From Phyllosticta citribraziliensis (taxonomy: Eukaryota): 64,000 bases of DNA. The notes under the pieces were generated by a model. It saw only the letters and a list, made by a program, of their open reading frames with translations, did no database searches and had not been told where the DNA came from. Below, piece by piece: positions 41,327 through 48,588 of this stretch (positions are counted from its first letter, which is position 1; the number at the start of each line of letters is the position of its first letter). The stretch spans positions 682,001-746,000 of the forward strand of contig NW_027117341.1 in assembly GCF_038025025.1 (NCBI RefSeq), given 5' to 3'. The translations under genes were made by a program, and so were the position numbers.

Positions 41327-42507
41327 TCATCCGCGCTGCCGACTACGGATCTCGGTTTGAGAGACTTCGATGGTGCGTCTCCCATCATCGTACAAACCCC
41401 TAGCGACGACGGGGTCCGTCTCGACGGCCGTCGTCGAGCCATTCGTGCGTTGTTCTACCTCCTCATCCGTGTCGAGCTCGATGCCCTCGACGAGCACCTT
41501 TTCCTCCTCCTTCTTGGCCTTCTTCGCGGGCCGCTTGGTGCCGAGCGGCGGGTCGAAGCGCTTGCGCACCGTCTCGATCATCTTGCCGAACCAGTAGAAG
41601 TTGAGCGAGTTGAGCGTCAGGTTGGAGGCGAGATACGTGTACGCGAGCCACATGGGCACCGTCTGCTCGTCGCCCGCGAAGCGCATCATGTGGCTCGTCG
41701 CCGTGTCGGCGGGCCCGCCCGGCTGCGTCAGCGCGCGGTAGACGTCGTAGAAGCAGCGGATCGACGAGTAGGTGCCCCAGCAGAGGCGCGCGCCGAAGAA
41801 GCTGCCGATCAGCAGGAAGCCGTTGTAGAGCTGCAGCTTGGAGCCCGTCAGGTTGAGCTTGTCGCAGAACCAGTGGACGTTGAGGAAGGGGCTCGACAGC
41901 TCGTAGAGGATGAACGTCGTCGCGTAGTAGTTGACAAAGGGGCGCTGCAGAAAAAGCATGAGGAGTCAATGATTGGCCCGTCTCGGCGCCGGCGAAGCTC
42001 GTTTGAGGCACAGGAGATACGTACGAAGCCAAAGCTGAAGACTGCCAACGCGCTGACTGCATGGGCCAGCAATCCAAGTCCAAATTCTCTAACGTAGCGC
42101 AGGCTTATCCACAAGTCCCATACAAAGTATCCGCAGGCCAGGGCCTGGACGAGCCCGCAACCTCCAGTGTACCCCCACACCCGCCCTCTCCAGTTCATTT
42201 CGGCGCGCTCGTCGTCCACCCAGTGTACCCACAGCGCAACGGCATTGATCAGGGTGCTTTGTAGCAGTGACACGACATGGACGTCCCAGTTTATGCGCGT
42301 CCGCCGGTTGAATTGGGGATATATCTTGGGGAAGAAGCGGGTAGAGAGCCATGGCGAGACCACGGTACAGGTGACGTGATAGAGCAGCGCGGCGAGCAGC
42401 ACTTCGTGGATATGGATGGGGAGCGTGGTGAGGCCGAGGCGATAGGCCAAGGGCTCGACGGCTCGCTGGAGAGCCTTGGGAGCCTCGAATGGGAACGGGT
42501 CGAGCAT
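41327..42507 (-). CDS. TLC-domain (TRAM/LAG1/CLN8; TMEM56/Tda4-like) membrane protein (intron 42024-41945)
   Basis: NWDVHVVSLLQS, GYFVWDL, LAHAVSAL, YELSSPFLNVHWF, FFGARL, LNSLNFYWFGKMI. Confidence 0.9.
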
Positions 42508-43394
42508 GGTGGGCGCCGAGGACGAGAGAGGCGAGAGGTGGAGAGCGAGCCTATAGGCAGCGAGCTCGAGCGGGGCTCTGGAATGGGGAGCGGGAAGACG
42601 GCGGGGAGGGAGGAATTTTTAGATTCTTGAAGGCGCAGAAGACATGATAAGGAGGGAGAGGTCGGAGCGTGACGGTCGGAGGGGCACGCGAGGGGAGGGT
42701 TTGTTGGAGGCCAGGAAGAAGGTAGAGGGAGCAGATGTGAGATGGGAAAGGGTAGAGCCGCAAAGGCGCAGGATCCCTGCACCAGCTGCCTTCGATTGTT
42801 GGGACGTGAACGTGAACCCCGAGTTGGCGTGACTAAGCAGCCAGCCGAGGACCAACGCCGGCCCAGCAGCACGCATGCGGTCTCAGTCTTCGTTTGTCTG
42901 GCACATGAGGTCTTTGACGCTGAAAATGCCCCGTCATGGGCGTCTCTCTGTTTGATTTTGTCCTGTGCCCAAAGTGCCTTGTGTTCCCGCCTGCAACACG
43001 CGCTCCCCTCAGCCGGCAGAGCCATGTGATGGCGCCTCGGCCGTCCATCCACGACGCACCTTTTTCCCCTGCCTCACATGACGTTGGCTTGATCCTTTGT
43101 TGCTCCTCCTCTATCTACGGCGACTGGCCTGCAAGCACAACTGGGGTCGTGAGCCCAACGTGCGTCACTTGCAAGCACCAGGTGTACAAGACCCAGGCCC
43201 AGCGTTGTGACTGGCAAAAGGAACCAACTCGAGATGCACTGCGTCGGATCGACGTGGCCTGTGTCTGGCCTTGCGACGTCTCAACGCCGCGAATTCCTTG
43301 GGTCTACGTCAACTGTGACGTGCCTGGGGCGGGGAAGTGGCTCATTTGCTCGGAGCCAACATACATCCAACTTGAATGAATTCCGTTGGGCTCC

Positions 43395-44420
43395 TCATCC
43401 AAGATAGATGTTGTCACGCATTCTTTGAAGGTTTTCCAAGAACCCGCCACTCTTTTCCGGGGCTTTGGCCTTGTCCTCAACTTTCGGGGGATCTGGTTTC
43501 CTTTGTGGCGGATTGCGGTTGTTTTTAAATTGCCTGTGGCGGTCCTCCGCGAGCCTGACCAAGCCATCTACAAATCTCGTGCGCGCCTTCTCTTCAGCAG
43601 TGTCTTTCCAGACCTGAGAGAGCTCACGGAGGGCCTGGATGCGTGTTTGCGCAGCCTCCAAGCCGTCGTCTGTACCGGTGATGAGCTCAGCAATCTCATT
43701 GCGCAGTCTCTCGGCAAATTCTCGTCCTTTTTCTTCGCGGCTTTGACTCTCTGATCCAGGTTCGGGAGCAGATACAGACACGAGGGACGAGGCAAAGGAA
43801 ACCTCGGAAGGGGCCAGCGTCCACTGCATAGCTTCGCCAAAGACTTTGATGACGCTCTCTAGGCGCGAGCGGACCAGCGTCAATGTGCGCAAGTGGTTGA
43901 GATGTTCGGGCTCCGAGGAGACTTGAGAACTTCTTTGCAGAGCCTCTGCGCTGGCAGTGCTGGGCCGTGTCGCGGGTTCATCGGGCCTGTCGCTGGAGGG
44001 CAATGCGCTTGAGGTGGGCTCTATCCTGAGGCCACCTGGAACAAACTTGGCCACATCGTCCTTCAGTCCATCTGTCAGGGCCTCGGACAATCCAGTAGTC
44101 TCGCCTCTTAGGACCTCTACTTCGTAGGCAAGCCTAGCGCCGCTCCGCAAAATGTCGTCCGTCATTTGGGTGAGCACGGCCGATAAGCGGGTGGTCTGAG
44201 CATTCAGCTGCGACAACAAGGTCTGTGTTTGTACCGAGAGCTCTGCCAGAGGGACGTCGGATGCATTGCGAGATCTGGCGGTTGACAAGGCGGGGAGGAC
44301 GGCGTTGAGGTGGTCGACGGGGTCGAAGTGGGGCTGGATGAAGGGCGCCAGGGACGGATCAGAGACGTGGGAGGACTTGGGCTCGACGACGGAAGCGCGG
44401 TGGGCGTCAGACACGGCCAT
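43395..44420 (-). CDS. COG7: COG7-like subunit of the conserved oligomeric Golgi complex (alternative start 44468)
   Basis: N-terminal FDPVDHLNAVL..LLSQL..QMTDDILRSGARLAYEVEVLRGET resembles the COG7 N-terminus as recalled ([31 protein letters not shown]). Predicted helical. Confidence 0.55.
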   Translation of the reverse strand: MAVSDAHRASVVEPKSSHVSDPSLAPFIQPHFDPVDHLNAVLPALSTARSRNASDVPLAELSVQTQTLLSQLNAQTTRLSAVLTQMTDDILRSGARLAYEVEVLRGETTGLSEALTDGLKDDVAKFVPGGLRIEPTSSALPSSDRPDEPATRPSTASAEALQRSSQVSSEPEHLNHLRTLTLVRSRLESVIKVFGEAMQWTLAPSEVSFASSLVSVSAPEPGSESQSREEKGREFAERLRNEIAELITGTDDGLEAAQTRIQALRELSQVWKDTAEEKARTRFVDGLVRLAEDRHRQFKNNRNPPQRKPDPPKVEDKAKAPEKSGGFLENLQRMRDNIYLG

Positions 44421-44809
44421 GGCGACGAGACGAGGCTGCTGGTGTTGGTGTTGGTGTTTGTGGAGCATCCCTAGGCTGAGGACCTGAGACTAACCACGGC
44501 ACGGCAGCAGTAGGCGGGGCGGGGCGGAGCGGAGGCGGGCCGCGAGGGTCAGGGCAGGGCAGGCACACGGTTCAGTCAACCGCCAGCCTGCACTCAACAC
44601 CCCAACGCCAACGCTGCCTGGCGCCGCCTGGGTGCATCCATCCGCTGGCCCTGCCCTGCAATGCTCATGATGCTAGGTACATGTAGAATCCACTCTCTTC
44701 CTGTTCATTCCCATCGCAGTCAACGTACATGCAACGTGGGCGTCGCCCCAAGGTCCGCTCCATAGCTCGTCGTTTCTGGCAGTTGCTCCAGATTGGGCAA
44801 CCTGGGTGA

Positions 44810-44902
44810 CCTCTTTTCCTCTTTTCCTCTTTTCCTCTTTTCCTCTTTTCCTCTTTTACTCTTTTCCTCTTTCCCTCTTTCCCTCTTTCCCTCCTTCCCT
44901 CT
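44810..44902. repeat. (CCTCTTTT)n pyrimidine tandem repeat in the divergent promoter between the COG7-like and PARP-E2 genes
   Basis: About 11 degenerate 8-bp units, ~90 nt almost purely C/T. Confidence 0.9.
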
Positions 44903-45045: not shown

Positions 45046-48000
45046 ATGCCCCGGAAGGCTTACAACGCAGACCTGCGCGCCGTCATCGACTCGCAAGACA
45101 TTCCTCAAGGCGTTTCCGCCGTCCGAAGAGGTGAAGACGATGGCTGGATCGACTTCAACTTCGCTCCCCCCTCGGGCGGAAGCTTCCCAATCACCGCCAT
45201 GGTTTCCGACGTCTCTGACTATCCATCGTCTCACAGCTACATCCTGATGGTCGGCGAATCATCTCCTCCAGAGTTTACCAATCCTTTGGCCCTTGCCAGC
45301 AACAGCCTCCAGTCTGGGCTGAGCATACGAAGTCTTCTTGATCACGTCTCACAATTCTTCTACGACGAGGACAACGACTCGCTGGGATCCGACGTTGACG
45401 ATAGCAGTGACGCAACGGACAACGACCAATATGATGACTCTGAAGATGACCGCGGCCTTTTTGACTTTGATGGTGATTCTCCCTCTACTCAGTACAGACC
45501 TGAGACCCACTCGAACAGCACTCTTTCGCTGGAAGACCGGAACAAGATTCGTGCCGATCTTCGACTTGTCAAACAAGCTGGATACAGAGTTGGCGCATTC
45601 CCCTCCCTCCTCCAAGGCCAGCCCACCTACCTGTCAATATCTTGCAAGGTCAAGCGACTAGGAATCTCCGAAGAAGCAATGCAAGCCTGGAATATCGCTC
45701 CGGAAGATTACTTGATCCTGCTCATCCGATATCCGCAGGGCTACCAAGGTCTCGACGGTCGTGAGACTTCGCACGTCCCATCAAAGGCATCCGTTGAATT
45801 TCGAACCGGCATTGGATCCTCTTACAAGCCGGACACCAACGAAATCTGCAAAGCCTTTTCCTCGTCGGGCTTCAAGGCCCAGGCGGGCAGTGATCAAGGA
45901 GCAGTCGGCTTTCGGATGCACTTCATATCAGAAGCCATGCACCATCTTCTGAACGACACCTTCCTCATGCTGTTCAAGTGCAGGCTTTTGGGCATGTCCT
46001 GGGACGGCGCCATGCTCTTCTATCACGACCACCAGGGCGCTGTGGGGCTCAATGCTGATAGTGTCATTGCCACCAAGGATCCAAAGTATCATCGCCAAAC
46101 CGCACCAAACAGCGCATTCCCCGCGATAGTCACGGCTGACCACGTCAATGACCATGGCTCCAATATGCCATTATCGCTTCCGCTCGTTGCCATGCAGTTT
46201 TTCGTCCGCAGCTTCGTCCGCTCGCCTGACTATTGTCTCATCTGCCATCGACGCATGCCGGATGGGCTCGAGGCACTCAAACCCTACGTCTGTGATATTC
46301 CCCTTTGCTTATTTCAATACATGCAAATGGGTCTCGGACCTCGCATCGAACACGAAATCATGACCCAACCAAGGGTTGTCGATCTGCTCGTCACTCTCTG
46401 CTATTGCAGTGCCAAAACGAAGGCCCTTGATTCGAACCATCTGCCCAAAGGCCTTGGGTTGAGAATACCCCCTCTCGAGGTACTCCGCTTCGCTCAGATC
46501 AATACCGCCGCAAAGACCATTGATGGTATCACCTGGAACCTGAGGAGCGACGAGTCCCGGGAGCATCCATTACCAAAGACCAGTATAAACGTACGGGTGA
46601 ATATGGACCACGGAGACATAACGTTTCCGGCTGGCACGATGCGCAGCGATCTCGGTATCAAGAGAGGCGATTGGGTCGCGTTCAAGCTGCGATCATGGTC
46701 TGAAATCCTCCACGCCAAAATTGAGGACACCGTGGACTATCCCATGGTCCGGATATCCAGGCCTATCGTCATGCCGCTCACGCCTCTGCAGTCATCTGTC
46801 AGAGATGCTGCAAATCCAGACAAGAAGCCTAGCATTTCGCTGCCGTCCGGACCCCTGGACGCCTCAGTCTGGCTATATACCACTGATAGCGACAGCATGG
46901 AAGATAGTGAGATGCGGGAAGCGCTTTGGCTTCTCCTCGAAATGCTACCGAGCGTCAAAGAAATGAAGAATCACGTGGACCGTTCAGTGGATCTCAAGTC
47001 TTGGTCTGACCGCATTCCTCCGCCGGTGCTGGGCTTGCTCCGCTGGATCATCGCTTCGAACAGAGCGTGTATCATGCAAATTGATCTTCCGGATCCATCT
47101 AGCACTCTTCTTGCCGATGCAGGTAGACAAGAGGCGGTCTTTGGCATGCCAGGATGGATGCAGTTCAAGTTCGCCATGGGAGCACCAGTAAGTCGGCCAC
47201 TGTGTTTTCTTCGCCTGAGCTGAAGGCTGACTGCGCAACAGGACAAAGAGAGGAGGTTCTTGCAATCAGTCGGAACGATCAAGAACGAGATGAATCTCAA
47301 AATCGCCACACTATTCGCGTGGCACGGTAGCGGTCTTCAAAATTGGCATTCCATCATCCGCGATGGTCTCAATTTTTCCAGGGTCGTCAATGGCAGAGCA
47401 TACGGGGATGGCATCTATTTTGCTCGAGACGCTGGCACGAGCATGGGTTACAGCTCGAGATCTGCTTCACCATGCGATTCTTACCTTTGGCCTTTGAGTG
47501 AGATCAAGCCAGGCGTCATTCTTTCTCTGAATGAGGTTGTCAACGCGCCAAGCAAGTTCCGGTCCAGCAATCCCTACTACGTGGTGCAGCACCTGGACTG
47601 GACCCAAACTCGCTACCTATTTGTTCAGAAGCAGTATCGTGAAGGCGACTTGATGGTGCAGCATGCAAAAGAGGTGCCTGTTCCAACATTCTTCCTTCCT
47701 CAGGACCCTGCAGTCACGCCCAGAGGCTCGTCCTCTGCGAGCCTTGTGATACCGGCTTCGAAAACGCTGCGGAATGCCAATCATGCCGTTTCAGTGGGAA
47801 GCAAGAAGTTCAAGGCCCAAGGCTCCGCATCTGACCCCATCAGCATTGACGACGATAGTGCGTCCAGTGTGGTGACGGAGGACGAAGACCGCGAGCTGCT
47901 TGAGCTAGAGGAGGAAACCATTCAGGAACCAGCGAGACCAATGACTGACTTTGTGCCGGGAACTCTCGACCGCAGCAAGCTCCCGACAATGGCGCCTCCA

Positions 48001-48588
48001 ATGGGTGATTCTGCCTCTGGAATGGCAAGCAAGCGCCTTCTGGCAGACTACAATTCGGTACAAAAGTTGCAAAATTCGAGCCCGCCGCACGAGCTCGGTT
48101 GGTACATCGATCCCGCAGTCATCGAGGACACGGGCAACATTTACCAGTGGATTGTCGAGCTCCATAGCTTCGACCCATCGCTTCCGCTCGCCCAGGACAT
48201 GAAGACTCGTGGCGTCAAGAGTATCGTCTTGGAGATTCGCTTCGGCAAAGAATACCCCATGTCGCCTCCTTTCGTCCGCGTGATCCGTCCGCGCTTCCTG
48301 TCGTTCTTGGAGGGCGGTGGTGGTCACGTTACGGCAGGCGGCGCTCTTTGCATGATGCTGTTGACTAATGATGGCTGGAGCGCCGTATCAACGATAGAGT
48401 CGGTCCTCCTGCAGGTGCGTCTTGCCATGTCATCGACGGACCCTCGACCGGCACGATTGGACCCGGGACGGAGGAGCGAGTATGGCGTCGGCGAAGCCGT
48501 GGAGGCGTACAAGAGGGCCTGTGAGAGGCATGGATGGAAAATCCCTGACGGATTCGATGCCATGATGAAGGGATCTCGTTCTTCTTAG
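45046..48588 (+). CDS. PARP-like ADP-ribosyltransferase fused to a UBE2Q-like ubiquitin-conjugating (E2) domain, 1162 aa (intron 47188-47241)
   Basis: Cys cluster YCLICH..LKPYVCDIPLCLFQY (PARP6/8-like). ART motifs FAWHGS..NWHSIIRDGL, GRAYGDGIYFA and YYVV..TRYLFV. E2 motifs YPMSPPFVRVIRPRF and GHVTAGGALCMMLLTNDGWS (Cys codon 48349-48351). Confidence 0.9.

Follow-up and report, generated by a model that had tools for sequence, protein, structure and literature searches.

Fungal proteins that combine a PARP domain with a C-terminal ubiquitin-conjugating domain were defined by Citarelli et al. in 2010 as PARP clade 6A, with FPE, PARP and UBCc domains, an active cysteine in the latter and a missing catalytic glutamate (PMC2964712). 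In 2014 Perina et al. described the Cys motif and reported that moss and Chlamydomonas have the UBCc fusion too (PMC4245714). The preprint of Milo et al. (2026; 10.64898/2026.07.25.740670) reports that 322 of 534 fungal genomes contain PARP-Ubc and mentions the UBE2Q subfamily by name, and a 2026 review contains an AlphaFold3 model of Af-PARP2 (AFUB_070850; PMC13507078) with the same domains (PMC13720257). Close to nine in ten filamentous ascomycetes carry PARP-Ubc. The present study concerns a gene of this kind located in a window of 64,000 nucleotides (nt) of Phyllosticta citribraziliensis (GCF_038025025.1, NW_027117341.1), and all gene coordinates are positions in that window. The gene is an ordinary member of the clade 6A PARPs, also called fPARP2 or PARP-Ubc. 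With a probability of about 0.55, its product is read here as a mono-ADP-ribosyltransferase tethered to a hydroxyl-reactive ubiquitin-conjugating enzyme (E2), the two acting on shared targets. In a family known since 2010, the points that appear to be new in this sequence analysis are the His-dominated catalytic triad, the mapping of the residues for UBE2Q-type discharge and the seeming absence of PARP1. In the literature searched, mostly without subscription journals, no H-Y-H triad was named and no fungal PARP-Ubc E2 was tied to hydroxyl discharge; the tables of Milo et al. or the alignments of Citarelli et al. may already show the His column or this genus. An earlier note on this DNA had stated that fungal PARP+UBC fusions are known from surveys and that no biochemistry was known to its author, which agrees with Citarelli 2010, Milo 2026 and the 2026 review.

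The PARP-Ubc gene begins with the ATG at 45046 and ends with the TAG at 48586-48588 of the forward strand. The prediction of one spliced gene encoding a fusion of an ADP-ribosyltransferase (ART) and an E2, 1162 amino acids (aa) long, was confirmed at the level of the gene model. Intron 47188-47241 has the donor GTAAGT and the acceptor CAG, and within it lie a CTGAC branch-like site and an in-frame TGA. Without splicing the frame ends after 725 aa; the spliced sequence of 3489 nt encodes 1162 aa with zero internal stops. Each of the residues flanking the junction (Pro714, Lys716 and Glu717) occurs in all of the 120 nearest homologues listed, so that the junction 47187/47242 and the single spliced reading frame proposed in the earlier note were upheld. 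The spliced product is identical to the annotated P. citribraziliensis protein P0326 (1162/1162), which shows that the two gene models agree but is no independent proof, since P0326 possibly derives from the same assembly. The identity with protein P0003 of P. citrichinensis is 1106/1162. An in-frame alternative acceptor at 47250 was rejected, as it would remove three residues present in homologues. Both catalytic cores lie in the single open exon 2, and the ART-E2 fusion is therefore independent of the splice call, which matters for joining the N-terminal two thirds of the protein. A split-like annotation was observed in Neofusicoccum parvum, where two assemblies each have two proteins (P0329/P0327 and P0331/P0328; about 830 aa with the ART and 220 aa with the UBC domain). 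The same cluster also contains full-length forms of 1182 aa, and the records reflect either a split annotation or a real split. The features of the gene are as follows.

45046..47187, + strand: exon 1, codons 1-714 (reading frame)
47188..47241, + strand: intron of 54 nt, GT-AG, with in-frame TGA and CTGAC branch-like site (splice signals; junction residues contiguous in homologues; same model in P0326)
47242..48588, + strand: exon 2, codons 715-1162 and TAG (reading frame)
45046..45372, + strand: N-terminal RWD/UBC-fold domain, aa 1-109, no Cys (model confidence 89.8 when folded alone; fold search)
45373..45513, + strand: acidic disordered linker, aa ~110-156 (45% Asp/Glu in aa 106-145; confidence <50 in the P0003 model)
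45526..46035, + strand: folded alpha/beta domain, aa ~161-330, called FPE/RWD in the literature (folded in the model; RWD assignment from papers)
46234..46308, + strand: C4* putative zinc motif C397-x2-C400-x15-C416-x4-C421 (motif match, conservation)
46321..47187, + strand: PARP16-like helical extension with a beta-rich insert at aa ~514-610, followed by the first part of the ART (model alignment to PARP16; strands in the model)
47242..47637, + strand: ART catalytic core with His742 (47323-47325), Tyr773 (47416-47418) and Tyr826 (47575-47577, the E988 position) (Pfam, alignments, fold)
47767..47934, + strand: flexible acidic ART-E2 linker with a conserved D/S/T/ED patch at aa ~917-930 (model, alignment of relatives)
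48013..48549, + strand: UBE2Q-type UBC domain with GGH1074-1076 replacing HPN, Cys1084 (48349-48351), Met1086, His1144 (48529-48531) and Trp1146 (48535-48537) (profile alignment, fold, conservation)

The domain order is thus RWD, acidic linker, putative C4 zinc motif, helical extension, PARP domain and UBE2Q-type E2. The profile check proposed earlier gave matches to both PARP (PF00644, E 2.8e-12) and UQ_con (E 1.7e-07) on exon 2. The structure model was made on P0003 and not on the window protein, from 113 sequences (window numbering is that of P0003 plus one), with a mean predicted local distance difference test (pLDDT, the confidence value above) of 81.9, a predicted template modelling score of 0.67 and disorder at 110-155 and 889-919. 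A fold search with the model of aa 1-109 gave a best Z of 10.0 (root mean square deviation, rmsd, 2.8; 102 residues aligned), and chains of the RWD and E2 folds fill the list; an Atlas search with the same region found only a weak unrelated match (0.76). This domain contains no Cys and is therefore non-catalytic. The four cysteines of the putative zinc site match the PARP6/8 pattern CX2CX9-19CX4C and are each present in 277-278 of 278 relatives. For the beta-rich insert of the helical extension (~513-609 in the P0003 model), a candidate counterpart of the beta-barrel insertion described for the clade, no fold match was listed. Model residues 425-845 superimpose on PARP16 3-274 with Z 16.7 (rmsd 2.8, 222 aligned), followed by PARP4 (13.4) and PARP1 (12.5). 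The order given in the earlier note (N-terminal region with acidic linker, PARP6/8-type Cys cluster, PARP and C-terminal UBE2Q-like UBC) is thus borne out by Pfam, the motif and the model. It was considered whether the PARP module had been inserted inside a UBE2Q gene, with the N-terminal RWD and acidic linker coming from UBE2Q, but an N-terminal RWD with a linker is present in PARP8 as well. Docking of the E2 domain (945-1161 of P0003) onto the PARP module (160-888), performed without alignments, scored 0.00 and gave no verdict, and it was used neither way. In the otherwise variable ART-E2 linker, Ser923, Thr926 and Asp930 form a conserved acidic patch (window ~47850-47890), a candidate site of self-modification.

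The homologue search returned 1685 long homologues, and 120 of the 120 listed carry PF00644. The protein has the defining traits of clade 6A: a PARP followed by a C-terminal UBCc in one open reading frame (the single open exon 2), a triad keeping His and Tyr and lacking Glu, the UBCc active-site Cys, the C4* motif, an N-terminal FPE/RWD region (aa 1-109 having the RWD/UBC fold) and a helical extension joined to the ART. A search aimed at PARP1, PARP6 or PARP16 sequences found only PARP-Ubc relatives among the best 120 of 811. The length of 1162 aa compares with a clade mean of ~1154, and the order RWD/FPE, C4*, helical extension, ART and UBE2Q-type UBC is shared, probably together with the beta insert of the extension. 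Unlike typical members, the window protein has Tyr where the third triad residue is usually His, Met at Cys+2 of the E2 and a somewhat shorter ART-to-UBC spacer (137 aa versus a median of 164 aa in 274 relatives). The Phyllosticta proteins differ at many sites conserved at a level of at least 85%, most densely around the C4 motif, and have a long stem branch. Human PARP6 and PARP8 share the C4* motif and RWD domains (PMC10450202) and PARP16 shares the helical extension, the ART fold and H-Y-Y, whereas the C-terminal E2 is absent from these human proteins. The window protein is not of the PARP16 orthologue type, as it is 1162 aa long, ends in a UBC domain instead of a membrane anchor and has a Tyr derived from His. 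Neither is it a PARP1-type poly-ART, having Tyr at the Glu position and no WGR or PARP_reg match in the protein according to Pfam. Further sources used in the analysis are PMC12687431, PMC3372510, PMC10951314 and PMC12000418.

The ART triad of the window protein consists of His742, Tyr773 and Tyr826. Conservation was estimated in 278 relatives of 1000-1320 aa, out of 323 fetched, and His742 and Tyr773 are each present in all 278. Direct alignment of the strand bearing the third residue with solved PARPs did not settle its register: local alignments end before the strand, and a 47-aa query gave chance matches only. The register was instead derived from structural end points (model residue 847 corresponding to PARP1 1010, and 845 to PARP16 274), with a gap-free count-back over ~22 residues assumed, which places Tyr825 of P0003 (window Tyr826) at PARP1 988 and PARP16 254 as judged from the model. 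The same count-back leads to PARP10 987, PARP12 660, PARP14 1782 and PARP4 547, which we take to be the triad positions of these proteins. The earlier placement of Tyr at the PARP1 E988 position is upheld by these registers, and by the standard argument the missing Glu supports the prediction of mono- rather than poly-ADP-ribosylation made at the same time.

At the third triad position, the 120 nearest homologues listed have His (107), Tyr (12) or Phe (1). Among 150 cluster representatives His occurs 103 times, Tyr 20, Phe 11, Cys 7, Gly 3, Asn 2 and Ala, Thr and Pro once each, with one gap and no Glu (0/150); the minor counts vary by alignment, P0200 and P0209 being read differently in two alignments. 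A midpoint-rooted FastTree was built for 273 sequences (six gappy rows dropped; 455 columns including the triad column) from a sample biased to filamentous ascomycetes. Parsimony on this tree placed His at the root and required 44 changes, and residues other than His occupy 35 separate clades. Tyr is shared by the four Phyllosticta sequences, which group together (support 1.0) beside His-bearing Aplosporella. Because His is ancestral in this tree and Tyr arises on the Phyllosticta stem, H-Y-Y is, by parsimony, a derived state convergent with PARP16 and not a link to it. The earlier description of the triad as H-Y-Y, as in PARP16, is thus right for the residues of this protein and wrong as a family trait.

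The mobility of the third residue bears on the possibility that the ART is a pseudo-enzyme, sensing NAD+ or ADP-ribose and regulating or targeting the E2, so that only ubiquitin transfer would be catalytic. The 44 changes in 273 sequences are in its favour, as are the conservation of His and Tyr, which shows binding and not transfer, and the animal precedent of PARP9, an ART domain without assigned activity. However, PARP16, which has H-Y-Y as well and is the closest ART of solved structure, does show mono-ART activity; its Y254 is the predicted catalytic residue, and its H152A/Y254A mutant is dead. The genome also keeps a macrodomain and two microbial PARG-type genes with no other PARP found, a weak argument, given that other writers such as Tpt1 are present. 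On balance a non-transferring ART is considered decidedly improbable.

The reading of a mono-ART tethered to a hydroxyl-reactive E2 depends further on the C-terminal domain. Cys1084 aligns with the active-site Cys of UBE2Q1/Q2 and is present in 274/278 relatives. Together with the invariance of His742 and Tyr773, this is the conservation among orthologues on which the earlier note had made its proposal depend. The HPN motif is absent, with GGH at positions -10 to -8 from the Cys. UBE2Q is the top match of the UBC domain by sequence (E 2e-27 with a profile), by fold and by Atlas features, and model residues 971-1143 superimpose on UBE2Q2 with Z 17.4 (rmsd 1.9, 152 aligned). In a profile alignment with UBE2Q1 (2qgx), His1076 falls opposite chain residue Tyr98, Cys1084 opposite Cys106 and His1144 opposite His164; with the published Cys351 numbering, His1076 and His1144 pair with UBE2Q1 Tyr343 and His409. 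His1144 is present in 271/278 relatives and Trp1146 in 267/278, and position 1076 is occupied by His in 266, Asn in 8 and Arg in 1, with 3 gaps. Human UBE2Q1/Q2 discharge ubiquitin onto Ser, Thr, glycerol and glucose without a ubiquitin ligase (E3) and are weak on lysine, and mutation of Tyr343, His409 or Trp414 of UBE2Q1 leaves charging intact and blocks discharge, with the exception of Y343F (PMC10971424). It seems from the alignments that the His needed for hydroxyl discharge is kept, the Trp is probably kept and the Tyr is replaced by His. UBE2Q1 and UBE2Q2 also share with the fungal protein an N-terminal RWD-fold domain (PMC10971424), while the fungal E2 has His for Tyr343 and a shorter loop before the C-terminal Trp and sits behind a PARP6/8-like module. 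Cys1141 was rejected as a second catalytic or metal-binding Cys, being Ala in 39/278 relatives. The earlier term "catalytically intact" for this UBE2Q-like E2 holds for the likeness and for Cys1084; intactness was judged by the Cys alone, and the domain has no HPN, His for Tyr343 and Met at Cys+2.

According to the proposed mechanism, the ART would bind NAD+ via His742 and Tyr773 and, without the catalytic Glu, would add single ADP-ribose units to itself or to partners recruited by the RWD and C4 region. Cys1084 would be charged with ubiquitin by the activating enzyme (E1), and the HPN-less UBE2Q-type E2 would discharge it mainly onto hydroxyls or other non-lysine acceptors and not onto lysine, protein Ser/Thr or ADP-ribose being the candidates. 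Because of the flexible tether, both enzymes may act on the same targets, and mono-ADP-ribosylation would be coupled to ubiquitin tagging and probably to turnover.

Several points weigh against this mechanism. The third triad position tolerates His, Tyr, Phe, Cys, Gly, Asn, Ala and Thr, which fits an NAD+-binding, non-transferring domain too, and the window protein has many differences from the family consensus. In the UBE2Q Tyr-His-Trp triad, the place of the Tyr is taken by His1076 here, only Tyr-to-Phe being tolerated in UBE2Q1, and the pairing of Trp1146 with Trp414 is indirect, requiring a 3-residue deletion outside the aligned stretch. Met1086 at Cys+2 (48355-48357) is shared with P0003, in a column that has Glu, Gln or Asp in 269/278 relatives and Glu or Gln in other Phyllosticta and most relatives. 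An acid at Cys+2 aids lysine discharge in canonical E2s. UBE2QL1 was reported as inactive in the UBE2Q1/Q2 discharge assay, and 18 of the 322 surveyed PARP-Ubc members have no UBC domain. The literature searched yielded no measured activity for any PARP-Ubc member, and the 2026 review calls validation of PARP-Ubc outstanding (PMC13720257).

A possible functional analogy is offered by the Deltex/PARP pairs (PARP14/DTX3L/PARP9, PARP7/DTX2 and PARP10), in which mono-ART activity and ubiquitin transfer also come together. In those systems a RING-DTC E3 works with a separate E2, whereas the fungal E2 is part of the fusion and Pfam recognises neither a RING nor a DTC in the protein. PARP9 does not ADP-ribosylate ubiquitin; it is the Deltex RING-DTC that puts ubiquitin on the 3'-OH of ADP-ribose, and the PARP9/DTX3L analogy drawn in the earlier note is outdated in this respect. 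The same correction bears on the second option offered there, that the ART ADP-ribosylates ubiquitin or its own E2 domain and thereby switches conjugation off. Both sites are on one chain, and acidic and Ser/Thr residues are conserved in the linker, but with the precedent overturned this option is regarded as very improbable.

A bolder form of the proposed coupling is a one-chain MARUbylation writer, in which mono-ADP-ribose would be attached by the ART and ubiquitin would be linked by the tethered UBE2Q-type E2, as an ester, to a ribose hydroxyl of this ADP-ribose or of NAD+ held by the ART, no Deltex E3 being required. It falls within the reading of a mono-ART tethered to a hydroxyl-reactive E2, and the two estimates therefore overlap and are not meant to add up to one. 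UBE2Q1 ubiquitylates glucose and maltoheptaose without an E3, its His determinant is conserved (His1144), ubiquitin-ADP-ribose esters exist in animal cells, and no Deltex DTC domain was found in the genome, a weak point for which no positive control matched. On the other hand, the animal reaction requires a DTC domain to bind and activate ADP-ribose and no such part was recognised in the fungal protein, action of UBE2Q on ADP-ribose was not found in the literature searched, and Tyr343 is replaced by His. Such a writer is considered unlikely. Just as tentative is the corollary that it would use a His-His-Trp version of the hydroxyl-discharge triad, fungi producing in a different way the mark for which animals use Deltex E3s.

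Profile searches of the contigs of the genome (31.4 Mb, 22 contigs) gave the PARP-Ubc gene as the only match of the PARP profile. The PARP_reg, WGR, canonical PARG, ARH and DTC profiles had no match, the controls being positive only for WGR and ARH. The same searches detected 31 UQ_con matches, Tpt1, one macrodomain and two microbial PARG-type genes, so this approach is able to detect intron-split genes. With exon 2 as a query, only exon 2 itself was recovered, and no stand-alone UBE2Q was found. From these searches PARP1 and a stand-alone UBE2Q seem to be absent, and the genome may contain no PARP and no UBE2Q other than PARP-Ubc; PARP-Ubc without PARP1 has already been reported for other fungi. 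The macrodomain gene (L003, G000:C4:198325-198687) and the microbial PARG-type genes (G000:C16:330641 and C2:2047907) are candidate erasers.

The apparent lack of a stand-alone UBE2Q is also consistent with a looser arrangement, in which the domains are largely independent and the fusion merely co-expresses and co-localises a mono-ART and a fungal UBE2Q, the latter working with a separate E3 on ordinary substrates. The disordered acidic linker between ART and E2, with a spacer of 130-187 aa in most relatives, agrees with this, and UBE2Q1 is reported to work with cullin-2 E3s. Against it, the fusion is retained in 299 of the 322 surveyed PARP-Ubc proteins (92.9%), and PARP6/8 homologues have repeatedly been joined to ubiquitin-related domains in other lineages. 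Largely independent domains are accordingly held to be a doubtful explanation.

The genes next to PARP-Ubc offer no functional clue to it. They are a divergent open reading frame of ~340 aa at 43395-44420 on the reverse strand, 626 nt from the start codon and without a Pfam match, and an intron-containing TLC-domain (TRAM/LAG1/CLN8) gene at 41327-42510 on the reverse strand. The shared promoter region contains a pyrimidine-rich short tandem repeat, at ~44800-44900 and thus upstream of the start codon.

If the one-chain writer were real, it would provide a second way of making ubiquitin-ADP-ribose esters, one that needs no E3, and this in a kingdom for which the literature searched reports no route. 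If PARP1 is truly absent, P. citribraziliensis would be a clean background for knockout work. For the mono-ART tethered to a hydroxyl-reactive E2, the mapping of the UBE2Q1 discharge residues turns the link between ADP-ribosylation and ubiquitin into a specific, testable question with named residues.

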